A stretch of 56,133 nt of DNA from a virus. Its lineage: Duplodnaviria > Caudoviricetes. The notes beneath the pieces are model-generated. The model ran no database searches, had not been told where the DNA came from, and saw only the letters and a list, made by a program, of their open reading frames with translations. The position numbers were made by a program, and so were the translations under genes. Shown here piece by piece: positions 11,242 through 27,749 of the stretch. Numbering within the stretch: position 1 is the first letter of the stretch; each line of letters begins with the position of its first letter. The stretch covers positions 1-56,133 of the IMG/VR virus record IMGVR_UViG_3300024232_000014, one strand, 5' to 3'.

Positions 11242-12153
11242 TCAGACTCCGGAGAGAAGGCAGAGCGACAGCGGCTGGTCAAGGCCGATTGCCGATGCGC
11301 GCTGCGTGTCGGAACGCCAGGTCTTGCGCGGCTCGTCGCGGTACAGGGGACCCGCGAGGAACGGCAGCTCGTCTGCGTAGAAGCCCGAGCGGTGGCGCTG
11401 CATGACGATGGCGTTACCCGCAGGGACCTGGCGCGAGACGAGCACGTCCAGGTTGAAGATCTTCTGCGGGAGCACGCCGGTGTACTGGAGGTTCTCCGAC
11501 GCGATGTCGCCGATGTACGGGGCGGCGAACGTGCTGCTCTGGAGCAGGGTGTTCTTCGTCCCGTGGTTGATGATCAAGGTATCGGCTTCAAAGCCGAGCC
11601 ACTGAGTGACGCCAGAAGGCGAAACGATGTTCGCGTTCTCTACCAGGTAGCACGCCTGTGCGAGGTCCGAGCGGATCGTCGCGGCGGCGGTCGACCAGGG
11701 GTTGGAGACCGCCAGCGTCTGGATGTTGGCGTTGGCGACGACGGCCGAGTAGAACGCGGTGTTCCAGGAGTACACCATGGTGTTCTTCACCTGGAGTAGC
11801 TGCCTGGTCACCGGGTCGATCGACTGGCGGCGGCGCATCTCGTCGGAGACCATGATCGCCATGGCCCGCTCGTGCGAGAACACGACGCGGGGCGTGCCGA
11901 TGGAGGTCGGCATGACCGGGACCTCGCCGAACTCGGGCCGCACCTCGGGGAAGTCGTCGGCGTACAGCGGCGTCGACTCCGAGTAGCGGACCGCGCCGGA
12001 GGGAGCAGCGCCGCCCATGCGGAGAACGGAGTCCATGATGAACTCGTTCTCGGTGATGTCCAGAATGAGCGCTGGGATGACCAAGGGGTCCTTCAGCAGC
12101 TCGTTGACGGTTACTCTCGGAGCATCCGAGTAACCCCGTGCGCCCGTGGGCAT
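11242..12153 (-). CDS. major capsid protein
   Basis: 303 aa; VRPEFGEVP, MVSDEMRRR..IDPV.RQL, DTLIIN, AIGLDQP motifs of HK97-fold actinophage capsids; follows protease and decoration genes. Confidence 0.88.
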   Translation of the reverse strand: MPTGARGYSDAPRVTVNELLKDPLVIPALILDITENEFIMDSVLRMGGAAPSGAVRYSESTPLYADDFPEVRPEFGEVPVMPTSIGTPRVVFSHERAMAIMVSDEMRRRQSIDPVTRQLLQVKNTMVYSWNTAFYSAVVANANIQTLAVSNPWSTAAATIRSDLAQACYLVENANIVSPSGVTQWLGFEADTLIINHGTKNTLLQSSTFAAPYIGDIASENLQYTGVLPQKIFNLDVLVSRQVPAGNAIVMQRHRSGFYADELPFLAGPLYRDEPRKTWRSDTQRASAIGLDQPLSLCLLSGV

Positions 12154-12723: not shown

Positions 12724-13899
12724 TCAGAGGCCGGTCTGGTTCCTGTACCGGGCTACCAGCTCGGTGCGCGCCTGGTCGCCTCGCGCGGTGATGTCCGGCT
12801 CGTCGAAAGTCGAGCCCTGCTCGGAGCTGAGATCGAGCATGCTGGTGAGGCGGCCCATCTCGGCCAGCACGCGCCGCATGACGAGCCCGGCGTCCACGCC
12901 CTCCCCGTTGGCCAGCTCGACGACGTGGCCGCTGCCCTCCAGGAGAGGACGAGCCATGTCGACGATGTAGGGCGGCAGGCCGCCGTTGCGCGTGAGCTTC
13001 TGCTTCTCCAGCTCGTAGGAGTCAGCGTCCATCTTGCGCCGCATGACGCCGAGCTGGCGGTTGGTCTCCGCGAGCTGGATGTTAGCCAGCTCCACCGCGT
13101 CCCCGCCGAAGTTCGACAGGCTCGGGCCCGCGCCCGCTCCCGCGAGCTGCTCGGCCTCGAACTCGTCCTGGAGAGCGTCCAGGTCCTCAGCGTCAAGCTC
13201 GTCGACCAGGGCCGCCAGCTCCTCGTCGGTCAGCTCGTCCTCGTCGTACTCGCCGTCGGTGTCCGTGTCCACGACGCCGAGCAGCGCGTCGAGCTGCTCG
13301 TCGGACAGCGACAGCAGACGGTCGAGCCTCGCCTGCTGTGCTTGGGTCAGGCCAGCCATGCCGGTGTCCTCTCCTGCGATTTCCACGTCCGACAGGTCGT
13401 ACACCTGACCGGCGTCGTTTGACATTTCGACGTACTTCCACGGCCCGAGGTCCGGGATGCGCGGGTCGAGCGTGCCGAGGACGTGCTGCACGGCGGCCGG
13501 GAAGAACTTCCCGTCGGCCCGCTCGTACTCCTCGACGATCCTGGCAGACACGCCCAGCTTCGGGTTCTCGGTGAGCACCTGAGTGCCCCTGGCCGTCGGC
13601 TTCATCTTGATGTACAGCCCGTCATCGCCGAGCCGCATCGAGTGGATCTCGCCCCGGAACCGCTCGGGGTCGTTGGTGTGCGTGTTCTGCGCGTCCGCGA
13701 GCTGGAACGGCACCTGGTTGTAGGCCTGCGAGTTGAACGAGGTAACCAGGCTGCTGAGGTAGCTCGGGGTGAAGCTGAGCTTGCGGCCCTTGTAGTTGAT
13801 CTCCCCGATAGGGAGGATGCGCTTCTCCCAGAAGCCGTTGCCCACCGGCCTGGCGGCCGAGAGGTCAATCGGCGTGAGGATGGTCAGCCGCGCGCCCAC
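12724..13899 (-). CDS. capsid maturation protease fused to scaffold (Mu gpI-like)
   Basis: N-terminal ILP.G.I.Y.GR.L.F, H..DPE...G.I, LY......G, VSA.I, HV.GTLDP.I..L..W; acidic coiled-coil C-terminal half. Confidence 0.8.
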   Translation of the reverse strand: MGARLTILTPIDLSAARPVGNGFWEKRILPIGEINYKGRKLSFTPSYLSSLVTSFNSQAYNQVPFQLADAQNTHTNDPERFRGEIHSMRLGDDGLYIKMKPTARGTQVLTENPKLGVSARIVEEYERADGKFFPAAVQHVLGTLDPRIPDLGPWKYVEMSNDAGQVYDLSDVEIAGEDTGMAGLTQAQQARLDRLLSLSDEQLDALLGVVDTDTDGEYDEDELTDEELAALVDELDAEDLDALQDEFEAEQLAGAGAGPSLSNFGGDAVELANIQLAETNRQLGVMRRKMDADSYELEKQKLTRNGGLPPYIVDMARPLLEGSGHVVELANGEGVDAGLVMRRVLAEMGRLTSMLDLSSEQGSTFDEPDITARGDQARTELVARYRNQTGL

Positions 13900-14843
13900 T
13901 AGCTGGCCTTTCGTCCGAAGTTCTGAGCCCGCATGGCCATCTTCCGCGCGACGTCCATCTTCATGCCGCGCTTCATGAGCTTCTTGTAGATGGCCACGCC
14001 CCTGGGCGACAGGCCTCCGGCTCCGTCGTTGTCCGTGTCGCCGGTGGACGAGTCGTCATCATCGCCGTCGTTGTCCGGGTCGGAGGCGAACGCCCGCACG
14101 TTCCCGATCCCGAGCTGTGCCAGCAGCTCGGGCTGGCGCGGCGGTGCCTGGAGGGGCATCGTCGGCCTGGCGGGGTCGAGCGCGGTGCGGTTCCAGGTGC
14201 CGATCAGCTCCTGGAGCGCGGCGCGCTGGTGCGTGTGCGGGGACAGCTCCTTGCCGTCGATCAGCGAGCGCCAGGCGTTGTCCTCGCCTACGCCGATCTC
14301 GCCGATCAGCTCGCCGCCCATGCGGTGGCGGATGACCGCCGTGCCCGAGCCGCTGCGGCTGACGATGATGTCGGCGGCGTTGCGAACCGGGACGCGCGGC
14401 CTGCCGTTCGCCATCAGCAGTGCGCGCGTCCCGGTGTTGGCCAGGCCGACACTCGCTGTCCTGACGCCAATGGACTGCTCCGTGAAACCGGCCCGGCTCG
14501 CCCAGTCACCGCGAGCCTGGGTCTGAAGCTCCGGTGGCTGGCGGGGCGAGGATGTGCCGGACGCTCCGCCGCTGATCGCAAAGTCGGCGTCGTCCGATTC
14601 GTACCCGCAATTGGGGCACCTCGCCGTGCTTCCCGCGAGATCTACTGTTGCCCACGGGGTATTCGAGTGACCGTGGGACCGTCCGTGACTGCTCAACTTG
14701 GCAAATCCCTTCCGGCCGTACTTCTTGCGCCCGATGTAGGCCGCCAGGGCACCGGGGTTGGTCGCTCCGCGAGCTGCGAGCTTGGCAGACAGTGCCTTGA
14801 AATTGGCACCGCTGCCGGGCGGAGCGCCTGCCGTCGTAGGCAT
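13899..14843 (-). CDS. multi-module head-associated protein
   Basis: GGAGG RBS; NPGALAAYIGRKKYG module, CPNCG knuckle, acidic stretch; carries HSN..VDLA and LAN..LLMA motifs. Confidence 0.7.
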   Translation of the reverse strand: MPTTAGAPPGSGANFKALSAKLAARGATNPGALAAYIGRKKYGRKGFAKLSSHGRSHGHSNTPWATVDLAGSTARCPNCGYESDDADFAISGGASGTSSPRQPPELQTQARGDWASRAGFTEQSIGVRTASVGLANTGTRALLMANGRPRVPVRNAADIIVSRSGSGTAVIRHRMGGELIGEIGVGEDNAWRSLIDGKELSPHTHQRAALQELIGTWNRTALDPARPTMPLQAPPRQPELLAQLGIGNVRAFASDPDNDGDDDDSSTGDTDNDGAGGLSPRGVAIYKKLMKRGMKMDVARKMAMRAQNFGRKAS

Positions 14844-14923: not shown

Positions 14924-17734
14924 TTAAGCCGCGCTCATCGCCAGTCTCGCGAATTGCGCCGCCTCTATTTCATTCAGTCCCAGCACTTCCATCGCAGCTT
15001 GTGCAACGCCTCTCGTGACTTCTCTCAGTGCACGTGAGTAATCCTCGTCCGCTGCGTGGTCCTTGATGCTCTGCGCCTTGGTGGCAATGGCCCTGCGGGT
15101 CTTGGCGATCATGTCGATGAACGCGGGACCGGCTGCTCCGACGGTCGCGGCGATCATCGGCACGACGACCTCCCACAGGTCCTTGCCGGAGATCGCCTCA
15201 CCGCCCGTGTGCACGCCGTAGCGGAAGGCCAGGAATCCGGCGAGGCCGCCCAGGGACGTGCCAAGGGCGATGCGGAAGTTGCTGTTGCGCTCGGAGATAA
15301 GCTCGGAGATCTTCTCGCTGGCCGCCAGCCTCTTCTCGGCTTCCTTGGCGCGCTCGGTCTCGGCCTGCTCCGCCTTCTGGGCGCGCAGCGACTCCATCTT
15401 CGCCAGCCGCTCATTGCGGCGCGTCGCCTGCTGGCTGAGGCTGCTGGCCGTCTGGACAGCCAGGACCGCCTCGGCGAGAGACTTGTTCAGCTCGTCCTGC
15501 CGGGACAGCAGGTCACTGAGCTGCCTGTTCTGCGCGTCGGAGAGGTTCATGCTCGCCGCGAACGCCTTGACGCCCTGGGAGAAGTCCCTGGTGGCGTCCT
15601 CCAGGCCGGTGCTGGAGGCCTTGAAGCTGCCCGGCGAGACGCCAGAGGTGCGGGCGATGTCCTCGGCAGACCTGCCCGGCGTCTTGGTCTTGCCTTCCAT
15701 CGAGGCCCGCATGGCGGCCCTGATGTGCGGGGTCGCGGCCTTGGGCCCGCCCCTGTCCGGCGTTGCCTGGCTGCGCACGGAGTTGAGCGGGTGGTACTCG
15801 CGCCTGGACTGGCGCACCTCGTCCAGGGTCTTGAACGTGCTCTTCCTGGTGCGCGCCGGCAACGGCCCCTCCATCGACGGCATGCTGCCACCAGCCCGCT
15901 CGAACTCGCCGTGCTTGCCGCGCTTGAGGTGAAAGTGACCGAGGAATGCCAGGTCAGACCCGAACCTGGACAGCTCGATCTGCTCGCCTAGCGATCCGGG
16001 CTGCTCCCCAGGGCTTCCTGGAGCTGCGCGGCCATCTTGTCGGCTGCCGCCAGCCGCTCCTCCTCCGGCAAGTCCCAGTACCCCTCCGGCACCAAGACGT
16101 GAGCCTTCTGAGGAGCGCCAGGCGAGGTTGTGGTCGATGATCCGTCCGCCACCGCTGCCTCCGGTGTTAATGGTGCTGAATGTGTTCAAGTCAAAGATAC
16201 CTACCTGGTCGCGCTCCTTGCCCAGGCGCTCCGCTTCTGCACGGTCCTGCACGTTCTGAGACGGGTCCAGCCAGAGATGGCCGTCTTCGACCCAGCCGCC
16301 GATGTACATGTCCTTGCCCTCGAACGAGCTGCGCTCGGACATGAGCATGTCGTCGATGGCCCGCCGTAGCTTGGCGCGGTCGTCGAGGATGGATGCCGGG
16401 TAACGGTGCGTGTGCCCGTCGAGCGCGACCATGTACCCGTGCACCGGCTGGCCGCCGGTCAGCGGGGAGACGGAGAAGCCCTCGCGGTCCTTCTCCATGA
16501 CCTTCACCGCGTCACTGGCCCCGCCGAACTTCGTCCACCGGCCGCGCGAGTCACGCGCCTGCATCGGGTTGAACGCCAGCTCGATCTGCTCGCCGAGGCT
16601 GCCGGAGAACGAGATCGGGTTCTCGTGCACGACGGCCGTGGTGCCCTTGTGCGTGGCGATGGTATGCCCGATGGCGTGCTGCTCCCAGGTGTCCCAGGCG
16701 CGCGAGGCGCGGCTGAACCTGCCCTTGGCCTCCTTCGCGCCTGCTACCTCCGAGAGCTTGCGGCCCTGCTTCACCAGCTCCTCGGCCTGCGCGACCAGGG
16801 CGGCGTCCAGCTCGTTGTTCTTGCGCTGCTGGCGCAGCCAGGTAATCGCCTGGACCTGGTGCGGGGCGATGTCGATACCGTCGCGGCGCGAGATGTCGAG
16901 CGCGGCCTTGCGGTACATGTCGGCCATGTACTGGTAGGTGTACGTCGAGCCGACCGGCGCGGCGGGCAGCTCCGATCGGTAGGCCTTCACCTGGTCTTCG
17001 TTCCAGTCCGGGTGCTCGGCGCGCACGTCGGCGTAGCTCGGGGTGTCCGTCTGGTCCTTGGTGAGCCGCCGCCCGGCCGCAACCGACAGCGCGTGCCGGT
17101 CCATGACGACCAGGCCCTCGGTGTCGTCCGGCGTGTCCCCGCCGTTGCGGATGAGCTGGTAGAACGCGTGCGTCTTGGGTGCCCCGGTCGGGAACAGGTC
17201 GTCGTAGGGCCCGTGGTCGCGCCCCAGGATGGCGTTGGCCTTGGTCTTCACCGCGCCGGTGATGCCCGTGCCGTGCTCGGGCGAGTGCCCCAGCTCCAGC
17301 GCGTGCGCCGCGTTCAGCGCGTTGGTCTGCCAGTCGGTCTGCGGGCTGTAGCAGGCCAGCAGCGCCGCGCCCTTGTCCGCGTCGCCGCCGCCGATCATCC
17401 GGGCCACGGTGTGCGCGTCGGAGTACCAGCGCATACCCTGGTCGCGCTCGTCGGTGTTGGCATCGTCGAACGCCGCGACGATGTTCTTGCTGCTCAGCCC
17501 GTACTTCTTGATGAACGCGTTGTCGCTGGCCTTGGCCTTGTTCGCGGCCACGCGGTCAACGGGAGGCTCCTTGTAGCGCTCGCCCGAGCCCCACTTCATC
17601 CCGGACAGCGTGCCCATGACGGTGCTGCCGTCCCGCGACCACTCGCCGTGGGCGTTGCGGTGCTCCAGCGGGTTGTACCGCCAGCCCAGGTCGATGAGCT
17701 GGCTGCCGAGCGAGTCGTCTGTCATCAGGCTCAT
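14924..17734 (-). CDS. large multi-domain head-associated (polyvalent-type) protein
   Basis: 936 aa; HhH-glycosylase-like region (WY..A, YSPQ..W..N, PKT.AF, V.MDRHA, P.QVQAITW), second domain (GFSV.P..G..P..GYMV, YIGGW, LD.S, A..LG....Q..IFDL), coiled coil plus two hydrophobic helices; three xQ(L)I[ED]L + RxxxGxW/F motifs. Confidence 0.75.
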   Translation of the reverse strand: MSLMTDDSLGSQLIDLGWRYNPLEHRNAHGEWSRDGSTVMGTLSGMKWGSGERYKEPPVDRVAANKAKASDNAFIKKYGLSSKNIVAAFDDANTDERDQGMRWYSDAHTVARMIGGGDADKGAALLACYSPQTDWQTNALNAAHALELGHSPEHGTGITGAVKTKANAILGRDHGPYDDLFPTGAPKTHAFYQLIRNGGDTPDDTEGLVVMDRHALSVAAGRRLTKDQTDTPSYADVRAEHPDWNEDQVKAYRSELPAAPVGSTYTYQYMADMYRKAALDISRRDGIDIAPHQVQAITWLRQQRKNNELDAALVAQAEELVKQGRKLSEVAGAKEAKGRFSRASRAWDTWEQHAIGHTIATHKGTTAVVHENPISFSGSLGEQIELAFNPMQARDSRGRWTKFGGASDAVKVMEKDREGFSVSPLTGGQPVHGYMVALDGHTHRYPASILDDRAKLRRAIDDMLMSERSSFEGKDMYIGGWVEDGHLWLDPSQNVQDRAEAERLGKERDQVGIFDLNTFSTINTGGSGGGRIIDHNLAWRSSEGSRLGAGGVLGLAGGGAAGGSRQDGRAAPGSPGEQPGSLGEQIELSRFGSDLAFLGHFHLKRGKHGEFERAGGSMPSMEGPLPARTRKSTFKTLDEVRQSRREYHPLNSVRSQATPDRGGPKAATPHIRAAMRASMEGKTKTPGRSAEDIARTSGVSPGSFKASSTGLEDATRDFSQGVKAFAASMNLSDAQNRQLSDLLSRQDELNKSLAEAVLAVQTASSLSQQATRRNERLAKMESLRAQKAEQAETERAKEAEKRLAASEKISELISERNSNFRIALGTSLGGLAGFLAFRYGVHTGGEAISGKDLWEVVVPMIAATVGAAGPAFIDMIAKTRRAIATKAQSIKDHAADEDYSRALREVTRGVAQAAMEVLGLNEIEAAQFARLAMSAA

Positions 17735-17943
17735 TGCGTCCTCGTCTCATCGGGAGCCATCCGGCCGAGCACCCGCACCACGTCGCCGACCTCGGCGAGC
17801 GCGGGCTTGTTGCCGGTGCCGAGCAGCCCGATGCCGATCTGGCGCACCTGCTCCATGGCGTCGGCAGACCGGGCAGCCGGATCGTGCCCAGCCCATTCAA
17901 GCAGGCCGTAGGCGCGCTGTCCTTCCGGAGTACGGCCGGTCAC
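17731..17943 (-). CDS. small hypothetical protein
   Basis: GTG at 17943 overlapping upstream TGA; its stop overlaps the next ATG (ATGA). Confidence 0.55.
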   Translation of the reverse strand: MTGRTPEGQRAYGLLEWAGHDPAARSADAMEQVRQIGIGLLGTGNKPALAEVGDVVRVLGRMAPDETRTQ

Positions 17944-19466
17944 GGCTTGGCCCCCTCGCCGTTCTTCTTGATCACCTGGCGGATCTTCTTCCTGGCCAGG
18001 TCGATGGTCACCTGCGGGTGGCCCTCTTTCCACTGGTGCTTCACGATGTCCTCGGCTTCCCCGATCGCTTCCACGACGGTGCTGTCCGTGATCGTCCCAG
18101 GACGGTAGCCCATGGTGCTGAAGATGAGCGCGGCCATGTGGCGCACCTTGCCCGCCGTGCCCTGGCTGTTGATCTGGTCGGCGATCCAGCCGATCTTCTC
18201 CGGGTCTTCCTTGCCGCCGTCGAGCACTGCGATGTACGCGCTGAAGTTGTAGGCGTCGGCTGTCCACTGGTTGTAGTGCTGCCAGGACGTTCCGTTGCGG
18301 ATGCGCTGCGGGCTGGCCATGTCCCTGGCCCACTCGCCGACGTTCTTGTTCGGCACCTCGTACATGTCATCGAGCTTGCGCTTGATGTCCCTGGCGCGCT
18401 CGGTGTAGTGCGGGTCGCCGAGGTGCCTCACGCGGGTCACCGCGTCGCCGATAGTCTCGATGTCCTCGTCCGAGCGCAGGTCGCGGAGAATGGCGCGGAT
18501 TTTCCCGGCCTCCTGCGTCTCAGGCGGGCGGCCGTCTTTCTCCAGCTCACCGGCCAGGTCGCCGAGTGAGGCCATCACCTGGTCCTGCTTGTCCTGGAAT
18601 ACCTGGTCAGCATTGTCGACCGGGAACCGCGTCTTGCGGTCCGCTACTCCGGTAGCCCTGAAGAACTCCTCGGCGTGCTGCGCGGTGCCGAGCTGGGTGA
18701 ATCCCTCTTCGATCGCCCTGACGCTGCTGTCCTTCTCGTTGTAGGCCATGCTGTCGTCAGCGCGGAACTCGTTCGGCTTCTCGTGCTCGCCTTTCGGCTC
18801 GACGGCATGGATCATCTCGTGCAGCGGCACGATCAGCGGGTCAGGGTCGTCTACCGTCTCGCCGGGCTTGTCGAGAATTGCCGTCAGCTCTTTGGCGGTG
18901 TTCTCCTCGATGAACATCTGCCCGTCCCAGCCCATCTGGGCAAGGGCACCTGGATGCTCGTTCTCGCTGAACTCTTCCGGAGGCTTCCCGTTCCAGTAGA
19001 GAGCGGTATTGTCGCCGAAAAGCGCCGGGACGATACGCACGTTCTTCTGCATCCATTCGTGGATGCGCTCTATTTCCGGGCTGTCTCCCGGTATTTCCCC
19101 GCCTGGATTCAATGCCGCGATAGCGTCCTTGTACGCCGCTACCCTGACTCTGGCATCATCGACAACTGACTTATTGGTCGATTCGTGCGTGATCCGGTAG
19201 GCGTACTCGAATGCGCTGGAAAGCGAGTCGGCAGCCTTCTGGTCGTCTCCGTCCCTCAGCGCTTTTATCGCATTGCCGAGGTGCCTGTCCTCGGTGTACC
19301 GGGCACCGGGCAGCTTGCTCAGCCGGTTGACGATCCCCTGGTGCGCCGGTGCATCCAGTGCTGCGCCTGCGCCGTGCACCCAGCGCCCGTCCGGTGCCCG
19401 TACCTCGTGCCGCCATGCGTTCCGCCAGCCGCCCGACAGCTCGATCTGCTGTCCGGGCGTCGTCAC
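17940..19466 (-). CDS. zincin-like metallopeptidase domain protein
   Basis: HEMIH (HExxH) with downstream IEEG third-ligand motif; N-terminal QQIELS...RAPDGRW. Confidence 0.7.
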   Translation of the reverse strand: MTTPGQQIELSGGWRNAWRHEVRAPDGRWVHGAGAALDAPAHQGIVNRLSKLPGARYTEDRHLGNAIKALRDGDDQKAADSLSSAFEYAYRITHESTNKSVVDDARVRVAAYKDAIAALNPGGEIPGDSPEIERIHEWMQKNVRIVPALFGDNTALYWNGKPPEEFSENEHPGALAQMGWDGQMFIEENTAKELTAILDKPGETVDDPDPLIVPLHEMIHAVEPKGEHEKPNEFRADDSMAYNEKDSSVRAIEEGFTQLGTAQHAEEFFRATGVADRKTRFPVDNADQVFQDKQDQVMASLGDLAGELEKDGRPPETQEAGKIRAILRDLRSDEDIETIGDAVTRVRHLGDPHYTERARDIKRKLDDMYEVPNKNVGEWARDMASPQRIRNGTSWQHYNQWTADAYNFSAYIAVLDGGKEDPEKIGWIADQINSQGTAGKVRHMAALIFSTMGYRPGTITDSTVVEAIGEAEDIVKHQWKEGHPQVTIDLARKKIRQVIKKNGEGAKP

Positions 19467-20092
19467 TTCAGTGCCTTGGCCTGGGCAATCGCCGTGGCCG
19501 CTGCCGTCAGGTACTGCTGGATCTGCTTGTTAAGCGCCTGGATCTGCGTCCTGAGCTGGTTCTGCGAGGCGGTGGTGTTGAGGCTGGAGGTAGAGCCCGG
19601 TGCCTGCGTGAGGCTGGACGAGGTGCCTGCCGGGTTAGTTGCCCCGGTCGCTGCGGTCGCCGGTGCAGGCGCGCTCGATGCCGTCGTGGAGCCCGCCTGG
19701 CTGCCGGTGGTCGAGCCCGACTGGCCCATGTTCACCTGGCCGCTCGCGCTGGCCAGCTCCTTCTGGAGCAGGTCGCGCTTGGCGATCAGCTCGTGCGCCT
19801 TCTGCCGGTCGCTGGCTGCCGAGGTGAGCAGTACGTGCTTCTGGTGCTGCACGTGCGCCGCGTGCGCCGAGGCAGGCACCGACTTGGGCAGCGGGACGCC
19901 CTTGACGCCCTTGCCCTTCGGCGCGGGCTTGCTGCCCTTGCCCGCCGTTGCCTGGCCCTGGCCGCCCTTGGTGAACTCGCCCGCGACGTTGCGCGCTTCC
20001 TTCTTGGCGTTAGCCGAGCGCGCGTTGCCGCTGCCCGCCGAGGTCGAGCGCGGTCCGCTTGCGCTGCTGGTGGCCGGAGCCGCGAGCAGCAC
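19463..20092 (-). CDS. low-complexity coiled-coil protein; probable -1 frameshift extension of 20092..22866
   Basis: No well-spaced RBS before GTG; lies in the -1 frame just after C CCA AAA; contains RNVAGEF motif. Confidence 0.6.
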   Translation of the reverse strand: MLLAAPATSSASGPRSTSAGSGNARSANAKKEARNVAGEFTKGGQGQATAGKGSKPAPKGKGVKGVPLPKSVPASAHAAHVQHQKHVLLTSAASDRQKAHELIAKRDLLQKELASASGQVNMGQSGSTTGSQAGSTTASSAPAPATAATGATNPAGTSSSLTQAPGSTSSLNTTASQNQLRTQIQALNKQIQQYLTAAATAIAQAKALK

Positions 20093-22866
20093 TACCCTTT
20101 TGGGAGCAGTACCGCCAGCTCGACAGCTCGGGATGCGTCGTCCCAGTTAGACAGGCCTGCATTGCGCCGCCTGGTAGCCGCCGTGCGCCGCGCTGCCTGG
20201 GCGCTCGTCTCGCCGAACGCGGAGCGCTGCTCCCTGGTCAGGAGCGGCCCGGCCAGGTTCTCCATGTTCCGCCCGCCTGGGTTCTTCATCCTTGGCGGTG
20301 CGGTGTACGGAGCTACCTTGGGCGGCCCGAACGGGTCGCGGGGAGCCTTCGGCACCGAGCGCCGGGCGGGAGCGGTGCGCGCCGCGTACGCCTTGGCGGC
20401 TGCCTCGCGCGCCGCGTTGGCCTTCGGCGAGGTGTCGATGCGCCCTGTGCGGTTGCCGGACGGCAGGCTGCCCAGGGTGCCCGCGTGGCGCTGGATCTGC
20501 TCGCCGAGGCCGCTGTCCGAGCCGTGCGCGAACTCCGACCTGGCCGACTTCCCGGCCGCCGCGACGTGCGCCCTGGCCCGGTCGTAGTCACCGGCCCCGA
20601 TCGCCCTGGCCGCGCTGCGCAGCGAGTTGGCCGAGGAGGACCCGCCGCGCCGCTGGAAGCTGCCGTAGCCCTCGGAGTCGTCCGTGGCGTTGTACAGCGG
20701 GGCACCGACTCCTGCCCGGTCCGGGTCGTTGTTGCGCAGCATGGCCGCCCGCTCCGCCTTGTCGGCGAGGTCGTGGAGCCGCTGCACGTGCTCGGCCGGG
20801 GAGAGCTTGCCGCCCTGGCCCCGGTTGAAGTCGCCCTTGGGCGCGTGCTCGACCTGCGAGTGCCCCTTGACGGTCTGCTTGTAGACCTTGCCGGTGCGCT
20901 CGTGCATCACCCGCAGGGTGACCTTGCTGTTCTTGCCGCTGCCGTGGTGCTCCGCCGACAGCACGCGGTGCGGGCCGAAGCCCGCCCGGCCGCCCTCGAA
21001 GCTCGCCATCAGCCGGTCGCCCGCCTTGACCGCCGAGGCGTGCGTGCTGCGGTGACCGCCCTTGTGCGGCGTCGGGTCGAAGCCTGGGTCGCCTGCGCGC
21101 TTGAAGCCGTGGGACCAGCCTCCGGCACCGACCAGGTTGATCTCGCGGGCGGCGGTGCCGCCGGACAGGTTCCTCAACTTCTTCCCCTTAGCAGTGCGCG
21201 CGGTGTCGTCCGCTGCCTGGTCGATGACAGCCCCGGCGTGCGAGATGTGCTTGCCGAGCGTGTAGGAGTTGCCGATGGCGTTGCGGTAGGTCGCATCGCC
21301 ACGGCCTCCGGCGTAGAACTCGTGACTGCGCAGCGTGTTCTGCGCCGCGCGCAGATGCTGGCCGGCAGTGTCGAAGTCGCCGCGCCGCACAGCGTCGGCT
21401 GCCGTGCGGACGTGATCGCCGAGGCCCTTGCCGGGGTGGTCGCTGTCGAGCTTGCCTGCCAGCTCGCCGAGCGACTTAGCCCATTCGCCGTGGGCACCGC
21501 GCAGCTCGTCCTGCCAGCCCAGCTCAACGGCGCGCTGTCCGGTATTCGAGTACCCGCCCTGGCGGGACGGCGGCAGCGGGCCCGGCTGGTCGTTGCCCAG
21601 CGGGTTCCAGGCCCTGGCGATGGGGTTGCGCTGCCCTGGCTCTTTCACCTTCCCGCGCGAGCGGGCCACCTGCGCGCCGATGGTGTCGATCCGGCGCGCG
21701 TGGATGTCGTCGGCGCTGCCATGGTGCTCGCTGCCGTACGCGCCCCGGCCGATAGCCCCGGACGCGTTGATCAGGTGCCCCCTGGCCTGGGCGAGGTCGC
21801 CCTTGGCCAGCGCCTCGTGCGCCATGCCCAGGTACTGCTGGGTGCTTCTGTGGCTGCCTGCGTGGTCGGATGCGGCGATGCTGGAGCTGACTGCCTTGAC
21901 GGCCGCCGCGAGCTGCCCGCTGGTCCACTTCCCGCCCTTGCCACGGCGCTCGCTCATCCAGGCCGGTGCAAGCTCGATAGCGTCTGCACGCCCGTTTGCG
22001 TGTGCGTGTGCACGTGCCTGGGCGGCGATCTCCATGGCCTCTGCTCCTGTCGCGGCAGCTCTCACCTCGGGGTGCTTGCTCTTGGCACCCCACTTGCGGA
22101 TGGAAGCCCGCGCGATGCCGTAGGCCCTGCCCGGCGGCATGCCGCGCTTCTCGATGAGCGCCTTGACCACCTGCTGGAGGTACGGAGAGTGCTCGTTGCC
22201 CTTGACGCGGTACAGGCCGGGACCGCCTGGCCGCCCTCGCGGTGCGGGGGTGACGGCGAGGCGCGCGGTCTCCGCCGACAGCTCGACCGCCGTGGTGAGG
22301 TCGCCGCTGTTGCTCGCCGCGATCTGCTTGGTGACGTGCCAGCTCGTGACGCTCTTGGGCTTGGCCACGTTCTCGTCGACTCCGCCGGTCGGCAGCTCCG
22401 CAGGCGTCTGCATCGGGTTAGCGCCCTTGCGCGCCGAGGGGATGTCGCTGTTGGGCATCCCTGTCTCGTCGCCCGGCATCTGCCCCATGGCCGTCAGGTT
22501 CTCGTTGTGCGCCTCGTGGTCCTGGATGTCCTTGACCAGCAGCAGGTGCCGGTGCACCGCGTCCATGTGCGCCTTGGCCTGGTGGTACTCGGCGTCCGTG
22601 ACCATTCCGTGACGGTACAGGCTCTGCGGCTGGAAATTGCCGATAGCGGCGTTCAGGTGCCGCACCGCGCCCTCGCTGTTCTGGCGCTCCAGCGCGTTGG
22701 CCGCGTCCTTCAGGTGCTGGTGGGAGCCCATGCGAGGGTGGTGGTCCTCCAGCTCCTTCGCCAGCGCCCGGATCTGCACGACGGTCTCCCGGCGCATCTG
22801 GCCGGTCGGCTTCCAGGCGTTCTGCCTGGCCTGGGGCGGGCGGTACACGCCCTTCCTACCGCTCAC
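20092..22866 (-). CDS. large basic multi-module head-associated protein
   Basis: 924 aa Ala/Gly/His/Arg-rich; repeated helical modules (A..A...GD...A..HL..A) separated by xSN..[VI]EL[ASG] motifs. Confidence 0.75.
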   Translation of the reverse strand: MSGRKGVYRPPQARQNAWKPTGQMRRETVVQIRALAKELEDHHPRMGSHQHLKDAANALERQNSEGAVRHLNAAIGNFQPQSLYRHGMVTDAEYHQAKAHMDAVHRHLLLVKDIQDHEAHNENLTAMGQMPGDETGMPNSDIPSARKGANPMQTPAELPTGGVDENVAKPKSVTSWHVTKQIAASNSGDLTTAVELSAETARLAVTPAPRGRPGGPGLYRVKGNEHSPYLQQVVKALIEKRGMPPGRAYGIARASIRKWGAKSKHPEVRAAATGAEAMEIAAQARAHAHANGRADAIELAPAWMSERRGKGGKWTSGQLAAAVKAVSSSIAASDHAGSHRSTQQYLGMAHEALAKGDLAQARGHLINASGAIGRGAYGSEHHGSADDIHARRIDTIGAQVARSRGKVKEPGQRNPIARAWNPLGNDQPGPLPPSRQGGYSNTGQRAVELGWQDELRGAHGEWAKSLGELAGKLDSDHPGKGLGDHVRTAADAVRRGDFDTAGQHLRAAQNTLRSHEFYAGGRGDATYRNAIGNSYTLGKHISHAGAVIDQAADDTARTAKGKKLRNLSGGTAAREINLVGAGGWSHGFKRAGDPGFDPTPHKGGHRSTHASAVKAGDRLMASFEGGRAGFGPHRVLSAEHHGSGKNSKVTLRVMHERTGKVYKQTVKGHSQVEHAPKGDFNRGQGGKLSPAEHVQRLHDLADKAERAAMLRNNDPDRAGVGAPLYNATDDSEGYGSFQRRGGSSSANSLRSAARAIGAGDYDRARAHVAAAGKSARSEFAHGSDSGLGEQIQRHAGTLGSLPSGNRTGRIDTSPKANAAREAAAKAYAARTAPARRSVPKAPRDPFGPPKVAPYTAPPRMKNPGGRNMENLAGPLLTREQRSAFGETSAQAARRTAATRRRNAGLSNWDDASRAVELAVLLPKG

Positions 22867-23509
22867 TCAGCAGCATCCTTCCCCCAGGCCACGGTCGGCC
22901 CGGATAACAGCGGCAGTGCGGGTGAACTCCGCCGGGGTAACCGATCAGGGGCATGTGGTCTACCAGGAAGTTCTTCCCGTTCGCATGCCTGCATTCTGCC
23001 GAGGTTCGCTTGTCAAGTACAGTGTGCCATCCGAGCAGCCTGCCGTAAGTCATGGCGGCTGAGTCTGCCTGTGCTCCTGCCTGCGACCGTTTCCAGATGG
23101 CCTGGAGGTGCGAGCCGAAGTAGCGCCGCTCGCGGTCGTAGGCCTCGCGCAGCGCCTGCGGCAGGGACACGCCGCGCGAGCGCGCCGTCTTCAGGTCGGT
23201 CATCACGCGCCGCGAGGATGCGATGGCGAACTGGACGCGCCGCATCAGGTTGAGCCGGGCGGTCCGCGCGGTCGCCGCGCCGAAGAATCCCTGCTGCTCG
23301 GGCGGCATGCTCATGATCACGTCGACCGACACGCGCATGGCGCGCGGGGAGATCCCGGCGGTCTTCAGCGCCGCCAGCACCGTGACGGAGCCCAGGATCT
23401 CCGCCGTGGAGACGTACGTGGCCAGGGCAGCCGCCAGCGCCGCTACGAGCTGCGCGTCCTGCTGCGGGCTAGGTGCCTGCTGCGGTGGTGCCGCCGTCGT
23501 TGCTGGCAC
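22856..23509 (-). CDS. MuF-like (SPP1 gp7 family) minor head protein
   Basis: W.TVLD.RTS.EC....G...PG.VHPHCRC C-terminal signature; downstream of portal. Confidence 0.8.
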   Translation of the reverse strand: MPATTAAPPQQAPSPQQDAQLVAALAAALATYVSTAEILGSVTVLAALKTAGISPRAMRVSVDVIMSMPPEQQGFFGAATARTARLNLMRRVQFAIASSRRVMTDLKTARSRGVSLPQALREAYDRERRYFGSHLQAIWKRSQAGAQADSAAMTYGRLLGWHTVLDKRTSAECRHANGKNFLVDHMPLIGYPGGVHPHCRCYPGRPWPGGRMLLSER

Positions 23510-24328: not shown

Positions 24329-25978
24329 TCATGCCATCTGTCCAGGTGGGGGTGTCATCGGCGGCTTCGCCGGTGGAGTAGGCGGTCCTGACTGCGGCGC
24401 GAGGCCGGGTGCGCGCTGGCCAGGTGGCGGAGGCTGGCGCAGCGCGCCGGGGTTCTGCGCCCCGGCTCGCTGGGCGATGCTGAACGCCGCGTTCGTCATC
24501 CCCTGCACAGCGCCGAGACCGGCTGCTGCCTCGGGAGGCATGCCGGGCGGCGGGTTGCCCGCGAGCTGCTCGGCTCTCTGGTTGGCGGTGGAGACCAGGG
24601 CATCGTGCACGGCATCCTGGTCGAGCTGGAGGATCGAGGCCATGCGCTCGGTGATCAGGTCGAAGACCGGCAGCGGGATGTGCAGCACCTGGGCGGCCGA
24701 GAGCTGGCCGAACAGGGTGAGCAGCGCCTGCGCCTGCTCGTCCTCCAGCGGGCCGAACTTCCAGGTGGGGAAGGACGCCTTGGTGCCGAAGTTGAGCAGG
24801 ATCAGCGGGCGGATGATGTCGTAGCTGATCGACTCGCTGACTTCCTCGGCGATGGCCTGGCGGGACTTCAGGAAGAAGCTGCTCTGGTCCTGGGACAGGG
24901 CATAGCTGCCCTTGCCGCCGGTCGCGCCGCCGGTCAGCGCGAGGAAGCCCGCCAGGATCGAGTGCGTCTGCCAGCTCTCCAGGAAGTTCATCGCGGCCGA
25001 GAAGAACGCCCCGCCGTCGCCGCTGCTCTCCAGCACCTCGAAGGTCTTCTGGCCGTCGGCCGGCCGGATGAGGCCGACCACGCCGGAGGACTTGAGCGCG
25101 GCTATGTCCGAGGCCTTCGTGTTCGCCTCGGGCTGGTCGTTGCCGTAGACCACGGTCCTGGGCAGCGCCTGGTTCTCCAGGAAGTGATACCAGAGGTACA
25201 GGAGCTTCATCTTGGTCTGGTAGCACCAGTAGCAGACTTCCATCTCCGACGCGCCGGTCAGCGGCTCGCGGTACTTCCCGTGCGTGTAGATGTACGAGCG
25301 CATTTTCGGGATGTCGACGTAGCCCGGTACCTTCTGCTTGCGGTTGAGCATCAGGTTGCCGCCGAAGAGCCAGACCTGCTGACGGAATCCGTTGGCCTGG
25401 CCTGTGCGGTCGTTGTACCTGGCCTGGCAGGTGGACGGCGGCCGGTAGGAGATCCGCTCGTAGATGACCTTCTCGTCGTCGTCCCTGATGGTGAAGGTCT
25501 TCTCGAAGAAGGAACGCCGGTAGAGCTGCGCGGTAGTGATCTGGCCAACCAGGTCGGTGACCGGCGTCTTCATGCCGCCCTCGGTGTCGGGGGTCATCAG
25601 CACGCCGTGGATGAACTCCGCCTCGCCGCTGTCGCCCTTGCCGCCCTGGATCATCCTGCCCGCCTGCCTGATCGGCAGGGTGAGCGCGCTGGACAGCGCA
25701 GCGGAGATGCCGTCGCGGGCGAGCATGACCTTCATGTCGCGAGCGCCCCACGAGCCGTAGTCGAAGACGTCGCCCTCGCCGTAGTACGCGAACAGCCGCT
25801 GCCCCCAGTCGAACTGGGTGCCGATCTCAGCCCCCATCAGGGCGCTCTTGCCGCCGTAGGCGTGACTCCCCTTCGGCGCGAGGTCCGGGAAATCGTAGAC
25901 CTGGGCGGTCTTCCCGTCCTGCTTGACCGTAGAAGTGCCGTTACTGCGTGGTGGCATCTCGTGAACCTCCAGCGTCAA
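24329..25978 (-). CDS. portal protein (Mu gp29/DUF935-like)
   Basis: Follows TerL; M...DG..A.L....LPI, GSYALS..Q..FF, IIRPLI.LNFG....P...F motifs. Confidence 0.88.
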   Translation of the reverse strand: MTLEVHEMPPRSNGTSTVKQDGKTAQVYDFPDLAPKGSHAYGGKSALMGAEIGTQFDWGQRLFAYYGEGDVFDYGSWGARDMKVMLARDGISAALSSALTLPIRQAGRMIQGGKGDSGEAEFIHGVLMTPDTEGGMKTPVTDLVGQITTAQLYRRSFFEKTFTIRDDDEKVIYERISYRPPSTCQARYNDRTGQANGFRQQVWLFGGNLMLNRKQKVPGYVDIPKMRSYIYTHGKYREPLTGASEMEVCYWCYQTKMKLLYLWYHFLENQALPRTVVYGNDQPEANTKASDIAALKSSGVVGLIRPADGQKTFEVLESSGDGGAFFSAAMNFLESWQTHSILAGFLALTGGATGGKGSYALSQDQSSFFLKSRQAIAEEVSESISYDIIRPLILLNFGTKASFPTWKFGPLEDEQAQALLTLFGQLSAAQVLHIPLPVFDLITERMASILQLDQDAVHDALVSTANQRAEQLAGNPPPGMPPEAAAGLGAVQGMTNAAFSIAQRAGAQNPGALRQPPPPGQRAPGLAPQSGPPTPPAKPPMTPPPGQMA

Positions 25979-25988
25979 TCATGCCTGG

Positions 25989-27749
25989 CTAGCGCCAGGA
26001 ATGCACTGCCGCCCGGCTAGGACGAACGTCTTCTCTTTCATCAGCAACAGACTGCGGCGCAAACCCGTCCGTGCTCCAGTCGCCTCCAGCCTGGTTGAGC
26101 GGCCCGCCGGAGGCTTCCTCCAGCCGCCGCGCCATGCGCGAGTCGTGGCTGTCCTCGGGCATCTCGAAGCCGATCCTGCCTCCGGCCGCGTCCAGGATGT
26201 CCCCGCTGTCCAGAGCGTAGTCGTACGACCTGGCTGCCTCTGGCTCGCGGCCGGACAGGTACAGGAACTTGGTCATGCCCCAGACCAGGGAGTCGAGCCG
26301 GTCCGGCGAGCGCTCCTTGGCCGCGCCGGTGAACGTGCACATCTGGTCTTCCAGCTCGACCATCGACTCGACCGCCAGCTCGCCGAACGCGTCCTTGGCC
26401 AGCATCTTGCAGTGCTTGACCTTGTTGCGCTGGTAGAGCGCGGCTACCGGCTCGGCGCGCGTCCGCTTGTTCTGGCTGGACCAGACCTCTTCGACGTACG
26501 GCACCCGGCCGGGCGGCATGACCGGCTCGAACTTGCGGCACTCACACTCCTCGTCGCGGCAGCGCCCTGCCTTGGCGTGCTCGTGCGCGCAGTTCGCGCA
26601 CTCAGCTTGCAACTCCTTGATCACCTGGTGGAACATGGCGACCATCCACTTGCCGCCGTGGTTGCGCTCGACGACGATCCGCGCCTCCCACTCGATCGCC
26701 TTCAGCACGACGCGGCGCGCGAACAGCGGCGGGGACTCCTGGCCGCCCCAGTTCTCGGCGACATACACGGTGTCATCGCCGCCGAAGCCGAGGCCCATGA
26801 TGGTGTAGGCCTGCTCGTCGCTGTTCTCCGAGCCGTCGGACGGGTCGACGCCGATGACCGCGTTCCGCAGGTAGGCCTCGCCCTCGGGCCCGCTGATCAC
26901 CGGCACCTGGATGCGCTCGATCAGCTCGCGCGTCCACAGCGAGTTGGGCACGTCGTCGAGCAGCACGCCTTCCAGCTCCTGCTGCTCCAGTCTCGTGCCC
27001 TTGTTCGCGCCGATGACAGCCCTGTAGAAGGCCTCAGACAGGTGCTTGCGGTTGTCGACGGTCCGCAGCCGCCGCACGATCACGCCGCCGTGCTGCGGCT
27101 CGTCGCGGACCAGGGAGCGGACCAGCTTGGCGGCCGGGCGGGCAGCCTTGGGCGTCCCGGTTGCGATGATCACCGACGCGCCCATACGGACCGCGTACCG
27201 CAGCGACTCGTTCCAGGTAGTGTCCCACTTGTCCCAGAGCCCTACCTCGTCGCACCAGGCAGCCTTCAGGTTGCGGCCCTGGATGCGCAGGCCGCCTTCT
27301 GCGGCCGAGTCGGCGTAGATGATGATGCCGTTGTGCAGGACCACCTGGCCGTACGTCCGCCAGGCACTGCGCACCGTCTTGGAGCGGTGGTCCTTGATCT
27401 CGGCCATCGAGGTGCCGAGCGCCCGCAGGATGCCGCTCTCGCCCTCCACGCACTTGGTCCAGGCGTCGGCGTAGGTGGGCGCGATGATGCCGTACTCGCC
27501 CTCGCCGTCGGTGTCAGCCAGCACGAGGTCCGCTAGCCCCTGCGCGCCTGCCCTGGTCTTCCCGCTGCCACGGCCGCCGGACAGGTAGAGCACCCGCCAG
27601 GTGTTGTCTCTCTCGGGCAGGAGCTGCTCGGGCCTGGCAGTCTGACGCCAGCGCAGCCGGGGGTCCTCCGGAGCGCTGGCGTACCTCGTGCCTACCAGGC
27701 CGAGCGCCGCCACGTCGGAGTGGTGCGCCCCGATGGCGGTAATGCTCAT
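25989..27749 (-). CDS. terL: terminase large subunit
   Basis: Walker A GGRGSGKT, Walker B AWCDE, TGTP, QELEG, nuclease VIGVDP, K..RAEPVAALY, SPDRLDSLVW. Confidence 0.95.
   Translation of the reverse strand: MSITAIGAHHSDVAALGLVGTRYASAPEDPRLRWRQTARPEQLLPERDNTWRVLYLSGGRGSGKTRAGAQGLADLVLADTDGEGEYGIIAPTYADAWTKCVEGESGILRALGTSMAEIKDHRSKTVRSAWRTYGQVVLHNGIIIYADSAAEGGLRIQGRNLKAAWCDEVGLWDKWDTTWNESLRYAVRMGASVIIATGTPKAARPAAKLVRSLVRDEPQHGGVIVRRLRTVDNRKHLSEAFYRAVIGANKGTRLEQQELEGVLLDDVPNSLWTRELIERIQVPVISGPEGEAYLRNAVIGVDPSDGSENSDEQAYTIMGLGFGGDDTVYVAENWGGQESPPLFARRVVLKAIEWEARIVVERNHGGKWMVAMFHQVIKELQAECANCAHEHAKAGRCRDEECECRKFEPVMPPGRVPYVEEVWSSQNKRTRAEPVAALYQRNKVKHCKMLAKDAFGELAVESMVELEDQMCTFTGAAKERSPDRLDSLVWGMTKFLYLSGREPEAARSYDYALDSGDILDAAGGRIGFEMPEDSHDSRMARRLEEASGGPLNQAGGDWSTDGFAPQSVADEREDVRPSRAAVHSWR

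Follow-up and report, generated by a model that had tools for sequence, protein, structure and literature searches.

The window, by which we mean the whole 56,133-nucleotide stretch of viral DNA analyzed here, encodes head genes in the order terminase, Mu-type portal, MuF, cargo ORFs, scaffold, and capsid, an order that is alike in related loci. The cargo ORFs carry a short peptide, hereafter the tag, with a core of ~14 residues ([FYW][ND]PxE/QxR[DG]xxG[RKE]W[TS]) and, after it, a Gly-rich linker. The genes concerned are as follows.

11242..12153, minus strand: major capsid protein (phrog_1650, 3.5e-69), with neither the tag nor the motif found upstream of it
12724..13899, minus strand: 391-aa scaffold whose N-terminal domain is probably a Mu-I-like protease; no tag
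14924..17734, minus strand: 936-aa cargo protein, comprising tag, DUF7178, tag, Syn5-gp45-like domain, Gly-rich stretch, and decayed tag
17940..19466, minus strand: 508-aa cargo protein, an N-terminal tag and a helical domain with a HEMIH...EEGFT zincin-type motif
20092..22866, minus strand: 924-aa cargo protein, tagged twice internally, with a start that overlaps the MuF gene's end
22856..23509, minus strand: MuF/SPP1 gp7-like minor head protein (PF04233, 4.7e-08), free-standing, 217 aa, without a tag
24329..25978, minus strand: Mu-type portal protein (PF06074, 6.8e-33; phrog_113)

Megablast of the cargo region against cultured phages gave no match. Beyond the decayed tag, the C-terminal part of the 936-aa protein is coiled-coil and hydrophobic; a single-sequence AF2 model of its residues 1–474 had a pLDDT of 37.8 and was unusable. 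The 508-aa protein had no match in Pfam, PHROG, or NCBIfam, nor in cultured phages by tblastn, and within its family 14 homologues all share residues H216, E217, H220, E253, and E254. Its AF2 model reached an overall pLDDT of 85.3, and a Foldseek search of that model against the PDB returned nothing at E ≤ 1e-3, the top entry being oligoendopeptidase F (E 0.22). Residues 1–38 fall below about 55, and the tag is neither packed nor docked on its own domain, making it a flexible segment in this prediction. We dropped the idea that the tag forms part of the following domain's fold, as the domains behind it are unrelated and it is free in the model.

Among the head proteins, the MuF protein also matches TIGR01641 at 1.3e-07, which is under that family's curated cutoff. 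The 391-aa scaffold contains four [VIL][ED]L[ASG] sites against 0.43 expected. Its nearest ESM Atlas clusters are annotated PF10123 Mu-like_Pro (score 0.95), and hhalign of its family against Mu gpI found no similarity; its N-terminal domain is only a lead as the head protease of this phage.

Tag copies in the window

A preliminary description of this DNA had reported seven copies of an R-x3-G-x-[WF] tag in four ORFs. All of the quoted peptides are present on the minus strand where they were reported, and the tag is real, though the bare pattern is insufficient proof of it: R...G.[WF] matches 33 times in six-frame segments of at least 60 aa, including in terminase, in off-frame ORFs, and at one non-tag site inside the 936-aa ORF. 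Because the pattern is so loose, we built a 21-column tag profile exclusively on 35 tags from other loci, leaving out the window's own copies, and scored it against 920 six-frame window segments (97,647 aa) with 20 shuffles as background. Five matches reached 10 bits or more, against 0.05 expected, and all five sit in the 936-, 508-, and 924-aa ORFs. No further match of at least 8 bits was found in the six-frame window, the scaffold, capsid, and tail genes all being empty, which bears out the earlier statement that scaffold and tail genes lack the tag. The sixth- and seventh-ranked matches are the 209-aa ORF copy (5.0 bits) and the third copy of the 936-aa ORF (4.3 bits); at 5 bits or more there were 6 matches against 3.15 expected, and neither rank is significant alone. 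Five of the seven reported copies are thus significant, one more is degenerate, and the copy in the 209-aa ORF is indistinguishable from a chance match. Each is listed below, as a composite of upstream motif and tag where both are present.

17630..17704, minus strand: first composite of the 936-aa protein (residues 11–35), SQLIDLG and the tag WRYNPLEHRNAHGEW; 21.3 bits with the window-free profile
16520..16594, minus strand: second composite of the 936-aa protein (residues 381–405), GEQIELA and FNPMQARDSRGRWTKFGG; 21.9 bits
15890..15988, minus strand: third, degenerate composite of the 936-aa protein, GEQIELS ... FHLKRGKHGEF; 4.3 bits
19374..19454, minus strand: N-terminal composite of the 508-aa protein, GQQIELSGG and WRNAWRHEVRAPDGRW; 10.2 bits
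21919..21981, minus strand: composite A of the 924-aa protein, AIELAPA and WMSERRGKGGKW; 11.0 bits
21466..21534, minus strand: composite B of the 924-aa protein, RAVELG and WQDELRGAHGEW; 16.4 bits
19961..20002, minus strand: doubtful copy in the 209-aa ORF, KEARNVAGEFTKGG, without the upstream motif; 5.0 bits, in the chance range

The tag variant of the first composite stands before DUF7178 both here and in many protein representatives, and the second composite heads residues 411–527 of the 936-aa protein, which resemble the Syn5 gp45/P60 "internal virion protein." We accept the third composite as a decayed copy because its GEQIEL pre-motif is exact and the 14-mer DNA repeat described next is present too. 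The N-terminal composite of the 508-aa protein is kept in loci L001, L007, and L012 and in protein P0002.

The 14-mer CAGCTCGATCTGCT occurs exactly at 15971, 16577, and 19437 (0.05 expected), with a fourth copy at 41362 that has one mismatch. The three exact copies lie where they had first been reported, but the suggestion that the tag was duplicated with them needs amending: the 14-mer reads QIEL on the coding strand and is therefore part of the upstream motif, with the tag not included.

Spread of the tag and its genomic setting

Among 1.84 billion searched, we found 822 tag-bearing protein representatives at E ≤ 1e-3, of which 159 reach E ≤ 1e-10; they are mostly of 0.5–3.8 kaa with 2–7 copies each. 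The best 150 of the 822 hold 561 tags (2–7 per protein) with a median spacing of 267 aa, and in these the last tag is never closer than 51 aa to the C-terminus. At the other end, 66 of the 150 have their first tag among roughly the first 30 residues; some of these proteins open M-A/T-F-N-P, and others retain the full upstream motif after the initiator Met. Across 549 tags, R and G never vary and W is found in 95%, figures that are partly imposed by the way tags were picked, and G follows the core at +9, +10, and +11 in 46%, 53%, and 41%. Most tags have an aromatic residue at position −6 or −5. Two chemistries suggested by the motif were dropped: autocleavage at N-P or D-P, as the residue at −5 is asparagine in just 30% of tags and aspartate in 29%, and a threonine nucleophile after W, as T stands there in only 58%.

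The domains behind the tags are unrelated to one another. DUF7178 was found in 45 of 107 proteins scanned and ADP-ribosyltransferase families in 27, and others include zeta-toxin kinase, PI3/4-kinase-like, GNAT, NUDIX, ParB_N, Acb1, LigT, and S78 protease domains; zincins are also among the effector domains headed by tag copies. Relatives combine 2–4 Pfam families per chain. The survey that the preliminary description had proposed therefore shows a peptide portable across 822 representatives. No PDB chain carries the tag (best E-value 0.81), and a word-index search using a tag profile of 42 aa returned 19 of the 8000 candidates that it scored, all metagenome-derived. P0009 has no relative in IMG/VR, and the relatives of P0032 at 53% identity have a single weak HPRG-type copy. 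In cultured phages, no tag of at least 8 bits was found in the Salgado, Tierra, Jera, BetterKatz, REQ2, and Mwe-JY05 regions, nor did the profile match at that level in the large polyvalent protein of Pag-Yong1 or in Tunturi_5 gp225.

The residues just upstream vary between phage lineages. In this phage the motif is [ST]xGxQ(I/V/L)(E/D)L[AGS], and other lineages have h-x-K or R-A; in 107 of the 150 proteins at least 75% of the tags fall in one upstream class, and the two head types found have different classes. Within this phage the motif is enriched only in the scaffold and the cargo, and 9 of its 15 sites have no tag. Its recurrence in the scaffold, which agrees with the earlier remark that the tag follows a putative cleavage motif, makes it look like a head-protease site, with each lineage apparently using its own. 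The form Q-x-x-L-x-F resembles a sliding-clamp-binding motif; this likeness was dropped, as it holds for one lineage only.

In viral contigs the tag is found in the interval from portal to capsid genes. Of 63 viral loci found by pattern, 39 had a head or packaging gene in the same ORF or within 2 kb, 24 had no head gene within 2 kb on each side, and none was situated in a replication or conjugation module, which supports the proposed tie to head modules. The tag often directly follows a portal, MuF, or protease domain of the same chain: portal then tag share an ORF at 10 loci, 8 of the 107 scanned proteins combine MuF and tag in one chain (with the tag directly after MuF in P0065 and P0086), and the tag also occurs ahead of protease-capsid fusion ORFs. 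At least eight portal and at least five capsid PHROG families accompany it, on contigs of 37–73% GC, which implies very different hosts. Three of 13 related loci have the same zincin yet no tag (L005, L009, and L014, on short or truncated contigs), and the tag would therefore be dispensable in some relatives.

Cargo is heavily shuffled in this setting. Related loci have capsid proteins 88–93% identical against 24–34% for the zincin module, and at L001 the cargo modules are fused or split differently. Together with the three exact 14-mers, this would fit a tag without protein-level function, a linker or recombination joint kept because its DNA promotes the shuffling of cargo cassettes. We consider such a joint highly improbable: the peptide is kept across the full GC range, so that the DNA itself is not conserved, its R, G, and W are near-fixed with the reservation about tag picking given above, and the 14-mer codes for the upstream motif rather than the tag.

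Candidate roles of the tag

Judged from the sequences, the tag is a portable header of cargo modules in phage-type polyvalent proteins and labels putative capsid cargo. As the preliminary description proposed, the tag could be a loading address: during assembly it would dock cargo on a procapsid part (scaffold, portal, MuF, or the inner face of the capsid), acting like the T4 and P1 capsid-targeting signals or an encapsulin cargo-loading peptide, with several copies providing avidity. The architecture of conserved short peptide, flexible Gly linker, and cargo is consistent with this role, as are the confinement of the tag to head-gene neighborhoods, the presence of at least one tag on each of the three large cargo ORFs of this phage, none of which is fused to MuF or portal, and the N-terminal packaging signals proven for P1 DarB in the cited passages of PMC9024508. 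The tag is, however, equally present on modules fused to portal, MuF, and protease-capsid chains, and cargo already fused in this way would therefore need no loading address. It also stands after, not before, the presumed cut site, co-occurs with the many portal and capsid families counted above, and is missing from three phages with the window's capsid family. Co-folding of the tag (profile A2) with the scaffold/protease, capsid, and MuF scored 0.00 against a mark of 0.32, a result that speaks neither for nor against docking. We regard a loading address as rather unlikely.

The tag could instead be purely a processing signal, a recognition element or exosite for a protease with no later role, the protease being either the zincin-like metallopeptidase common in polyvalent proteins or the head protease. 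Of the 150 tag-bearing representatives, 78 contain HExxH (11.65 expected), P0030 combines six tags with six HExGH units, the 508-aa ORF of the window has HEMIH, and processing by zincin peptidases was predicted by Iyer et al. 2017 (cited passages of PMC5512222). Against this, HExxH is found in a tag ORF within 2 kb at only 6 of the 63 pattern-found loci (2.26 expected), some compact tagged head modules have no visible zincin (for example, L057 and L058), and the 66 proteins tagged at the very N-terminus have nothing to cut off. The nine untagged upstream-motif sites of this phage and the AF2 model, in which the tag is undocked from the zincin of its own chain, also count against a processing signal, which we judge quite unlikely.

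A host-side function seems a little less probable still. Here an injected N-terminal tag would bind a common bacterial component or set effector lifetime, for instance as an aromatic N-degron; the very different hosts implied by the GC range, the aromatic residue at −6 or −5, and the ORFs opening M-A/T-F-N-P are all compatible with it. An N-degron leaves the strongly conserved R-D-x-x-G-R-W unexplained, though, and searches suggested no host partner.

Our preferred reading, held tentatively and at somewhat less than even odds, is that a two-part junction opens every cargo module of this phage, with the tag as its constant half serving as an in-capsid handle acting in trans. It builds on the observed motif, its placement, portability, and restriction to head genes, and its presence on fused modules. 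The junction would run from a lineage-variable head-protease cut site to the constant ~14-residue tag, the Gly-rich linker, and the effector domain. Since the tag is downstream of the presumed cut, it would remain on the mature protein, and after maturation each released module would start with a tag on a flexible tether. That the chain is cut at the upstream motif, that the product keeps its tag, and that the tag acts as a handle are our inferences. Every freed module inside the capsid would need this handle, which would hold or position it for exit with the DNA, primary loading not being its role. Cassette shuffling could also have left tags behind at N-termini and on fused modules, in which case they would not mark a function of each module.

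An unlikely but more general version is that the tag is an exit signal, whereby the N-terminal tag, once exposed by the head protease, engages a part common to all tailed phages, either the packaged DNA end or the portal channel, and the module is threaded out with the genome. If true, this would be a secretion signal for capsid cargo, common to phages of hosts spanning 37–73% GC, and it could be used for finding new injected effectors and delivering foreign proteins. More broadly, how phages choose, organize, and eject injected proteins is known for few model phages. A header common to hundreds of uncultured phages offers a sequence handle for cataloguing injected effectors, and the catalogue behind it includes ADP-ribosyltransferases, kinases, Acb1-type nucleases, and many domains of no known kind. 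With one peptide, loading, processing, and exit all become testable, and if sufficient, the tag may serve to package foreign proteins.

Comparison with known systems

Literature searches by motif strings or topic found no description of the tag, and the terms looked up in the texts of PMC5512222, PMC5576092, and PMC11699363 gave none either. Five known systems come closest to it.

Like encapsulin cargo-loading peptides, the tag is a conserved short peptide with a flexible linker, attached to diverse enzymes that are, or here would be, cargo of an HK97-fold shell; a 14-residue core, glycines, and low pLDDT are what we found here. Encapsulin peptides are mostly C-terminal, one per cargo, with a known binding site on the shell, whereas the present tag is N-terminal or internal and occurs in many copies. 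The capsid targeting sequence of T4 internal protein IPIII is likewise a short, portable N-terminal peptide on head cargo adjoining a head-protease site. It stands before the cut and is removed on maturation. The phage tag comes after the presumed cut, is repeated in polyproteins, and is kept across many lineages, so the T4 analogy drawn in the preliminary description does not extend to an upstream, removed peptide: the tag lies downstream of a motif common to the scaffold, at which the cut is presumed.

The T4 IPIII sequence is cited in PMC9024508, whose cited passages also report that 30 N-terminal residues of P1 DarB suffice to send a reporter into the capsid. The likeness lies in these residues being the N-terminal end of a giant anti-defence protein that is injected (PMC9024508). 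No consensus is reported there for Dar N-termini, whereas the present tag is a sharp consensus in 822 protein representatives. In MuF polymorphic toxins (Jamet et al. 2017, PMC5576092), toxin and effector domains enter capsids by MuF fusion, and that text has nothing on motifs, linkers, or cleavage under the terms looked up. The window differs in that its MuF is free-standing and untagged; an N-terminal MuF fusion is seen only in the 8 of 107 tag-bearing representatives noted above.

The phage-type polyvalent proteins described by Iyer, Burroughs, Anand, de Souza, and Aravind 2017 (PMC5512222) resemble the tagged proteins in being large, encoded in head modules, and built of several unrelated effector domains in series. 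According to the cited passages, their domains include ART-PolyVal, LPD1, MuF, zincin peptidase, ParB, NUDIX, GNAT, and InPase, and they are predicted to be packaged, processed by zincin peptidases, and injected; the main text makes no mention of this junction peptide. The 936-aa ORF likewise joins unrelated domains, DUF7178 and the Syn5-gp45-like domain, in one chain, and it is encoded among the head genes of a portal-terminase phage. The difference is that this phage splits its cargo over several ORFs and keeps MuF separate.

Tag copies and head genes of the window

The head genes of the window (the whole virus record; 56,133 bp, GC ~67%) lie on the minus strand, where terminase, portal and MuF are followed by ORFs of 924, 209, 508, 936 and 314 aa, a scaffold-like gene, a 166-aa ORF and the capsid gene.

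Head genes of the window
25989-27749, minus strand: large terminase
24329-25978, minus strand: Mu-type portal (PF06074, 6.8e-33)
22856-23509, minus strand: free-standing MuF/SPP1-gp7-like protein (PF04233)
between the MuF and scaffold-like genes, minus strand: cargo-region ORFs of 924, 209, 508, 936 and 314 aa
12724-13899, minus strand: scaffold-like protein of 391 aa, preceding the 166-aa ORF
11242-12153, minus strand: major capsid protein (phrog_1650, 3.5e-69)

Seven copies of an R-x3-G-x-[WF] tag had been quoted in the preliminary description as a portable docking peptide, and all seven peptides were found in the window sequence. The bare pattern proves nothing, since the six-frame translation contains 33 matches to it, some of them in terminase and off-frame ORFs. 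An independent 21-column profile, derived from 35 tags taken exclusively from other phages, was run on all 920 six-frame segments. It gave five matches at ≥10 bits against 0.05 expected (20 shuffles), every one within the 936-, 508- or 924-aa ORF. The next-ranked scores, 5.0 bits for the 209-aa copy and 4.3 bits for the third 936-aa copy, fell in the chance range; the latter was accepted as a decayed tag because it keeps its GEQIEL pre-motif, and the 209-aa copy is doubtful. The recurrence of a DNA sequence, also noted earlier, held up, with a 14-mer exact at 15971, 16577 and 19437 (0.05 expected), but its association with the tag did not: the 14-mer encodes QIEL and is part of the upstream motif.

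That motif, [VIL][ED]L[ASG], exceeded expectation in the scaffold (4 vs 0.43) and in the 936-aa (4 vs 0.40), 924-aa (4 vs 0.24), 508-aa (2 vs 0.16) and 314-aa (1 vs 0.10) proteins, and was absent from the window capsid, portal, terminase and MuF. Reading the tag as simply a protease site was rejected, as 9 of the 15 upstream-motif sites in the window have no tag. Conservation of the 391-aa scaffold-like protein is high over its N-terminal 175 residues, which adjoin PF10123 Mu-like_Pro clusters in the ESM Atlas (score 0.95); the protein had no Pfam, PHROGs or NCBIfam match, and hhalign against Mu gpI was negative. A head protease in this domain is thus only a lead.

Within the 936-aa protein, DUF7178 occupies residues 82-229, and a similarity to the 'internal virion protein' of Synechococcus phages Syn5 and P60 spans residues 411-527 (34.5% identity, E 4e-8). 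Its C-terminal third (14924-15880, minus strand), after the decayed tag, is a long charged coiled-coil-like stretch followed by two hydrophobic segments that look membrane-spanning. The 508-aa protein had no family match and carries a HEMIH...EE zincin-type motif, invariant across 14 homologues. The 924-aa ORF has a GTG start and shares 11 bases (22856-22866) with the end of the MuF gene, and its first 295 residues are the sole large cargo segment of the window without a preceding tag, which together suggests coupling to MuF.

Spread of the tag and the domains behind it

Across 1.84 billion protein representatives, a profile made from 38 tags recovered 822 tag proteins (E≤1e-3), of which 159 reached E≤1e-10. 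The best 150 of the 822 were 409-3849 aa long and held 561 tags, 2-7 per protein, with the exact R-x3-G-x-aromatic core in 549; the consensus of these was [KL][AK][FY][ND]-P-x-[EQ]-P-R-D-x-[HR]-G-[RKE]-W-T-x-G-G-G. Among the same 150, median spacing between tags was 267 aa, 66 had their first tag in roughly the first 30 residues, and the last tag always lay ≥51 aa from the C-terminus. One metagenome protein, P0030, had six tags and six HE[FY]GH zincin motifs with a period of ~250 aa, so that tag-plus-peptidase units repeat in tandem along it. The 19 tag proteins retrieved by a word-index search were all metagenome-derived, and no cultured phage examined carried the tag, which may be why literature searches with motif strings and topics found no description of it.

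In line with the survey of following domains proposed in the preliminary description, a Pfam scan covered 107 of the best 150 proteins and placed unrelated domains behind the tag. DUF7178 was found in 45, ADP-ribosyltransferase families in 27, MuF in 8 and S78 protease in one, alongside Zeta_toxin, PI3_PI4_kinase, GNAT, NUDIX, ParB_N, Abhydrolase_8, Acb1, 2_5_RNA_ligase2, His_Phos_1, InPase, Topoisom_I, Tpt1 and LPD1; none of the 107 had a conjugation domain. This content is typical of phage-type polyvalent proteins. We also rejected the tag as part of the following fold, given these unrelated domains and an AF2 model built for the 508-aa protein from a 14-row alignment (pLDDT 85.3), in which residues 39-508 were confident and residues 1-38, below about 55, formed at most an undocked two-strand hairpin.

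Genomic context and relatives

A degenerate DNA pattern for [EQ]PRDxxGRWT matched at least 133 stretches in IMG/VR. We examined 80 with 2 kb per side; 73 had an in-frame tag, with GC from 0.37 to 0.73 among the matches listed. Dropping 10 contig-repeating loci left 63, whose 160 same-strand ORFs of ≥150 aa were scanned, nested alternative-frame ORFs being excluded by eye. Among the matches listed, a head or packaging family lay in the tag ORF or ≤2 kb away at 39 of 63 loci (24/37 in the first batch, 15/26 in the second), and a replication or conjugation module within 2 kb per side at none. A portal domain directly preceded the tag in the same ORF at ten of the loci listed, the tag lay inside MuF-bearing ORFs at three, and it stood ahead of protease-capsid fusion ORFs at two; at least eight portal and five capsid PHROG families co-occur with it. 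At two loci, L064 (1139-2218) and L102 (1848-2891), a variant lacking the aromatic-N-P part, ...GQPRDERGRWTKAQ..., occurs in an ORF directly between portal and capsid genes (both genes seen in L064, the capsid gene alone in L102), the expected scaffold/protease place.

The few homologues aligned to the 508-aa protein led to 13 related loci, 12 of them in IMG/VR and one on a MAG contig. Ten of these 13 had tags at ≥8 bits, up to eight per locus; the short or truncated contigs L005, L009 and L014 had none at that threshold. Where a related contig bore both portal and capsid genes, tags lay in the intervening ORFs. The residues before the tag differ between two head types: ...Q(I/V/L)(E/D)L[AGS] with Mu-type portal phrog_113 and capsid phrog_1650, and R-[AR] with portal phrog_12, S78/phrog_80 protease and capsid phrog_10. 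Cultured BetterKatz, REQ2 and Mwe-JY05, which share the window's capsid family, had no tag. Capsid proteins of L001, L006-L009 and L012 were 88-93% identical to that of the window, the scaffold ~50% and the zincin cargo module just 24-34%; judged by these identities, cargo (17940-19466) turns over far faster than shell (11242-12153).

The 314-aa protein (13899-14843, minus strand) has a CPNCGY zinc-ribbon-like motif, basic ends and no tag in the window; its homologues in L006 (12664-14679) and L007 (4685-6358) are the C-terminal part of ORFs opening with two tags. A short frame at ~17731-17945 (minus strand), between the 508- and 936-aa genes, contains ...TGRTPEGQRAYGLLEWAGHD...; its match in L001 is the N-terminal part of a 368-aa ORF (2898-4004), where the matching segment continues directly into a ...GLELDLAW... 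junction. The same modules are thus split in the window and fused in L001.

A proposed two-part junction and its rivals

The upstream residues are lineage-specific, with ≥75% of tags in one class in 107 of the best 150 proteins, unlike the tag core, which is constant across lineages. A loading address, as first proposed, is a less probable explanation, because modules covalently tied to portal, MuF or capsid need no address and retain the tag. A pure processing signal would agree with HExxH in 78 of the 150 tag proteins (11.65 expected), but among the matches listed only 6 of 63 loci had HExxH within 2 kb (2.26 expected), and compact head modules exist with the tag and no visible zincin; the link with zincins is genuine for proteins as a whole and weak locally. 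Many ORFs, moreover, keep the tag at their extreme N-terminus, some beginning M-A/T-F-N-P and others with the complete upstream motif directly after Met, so that there is nothing to cut off, and we consider this explanation unlikely. A host-side function seems slightly less likely still, and a tag without function highly improbable.

Tags both on fused modules and at N-termini favour a two-part junction, which we put forward tentatively as the leading reading. Its variable upstream residues would be the cut site, and its constant header, the tag, would remain on each released module, held on a Gly tether and read in trans; we infer the cleavage, the tag's retention and its function as a handle.

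Term searches of the main text of PMC5512222 turned up no reference to the tag. N-terminal packaging signals exist, as for P1 DarB, and PMC9024508 reports no consensus among the Dar proteins. The tag-bearing proteins fit the phage-type polyvalent proteins as PMC5512222 presents them.
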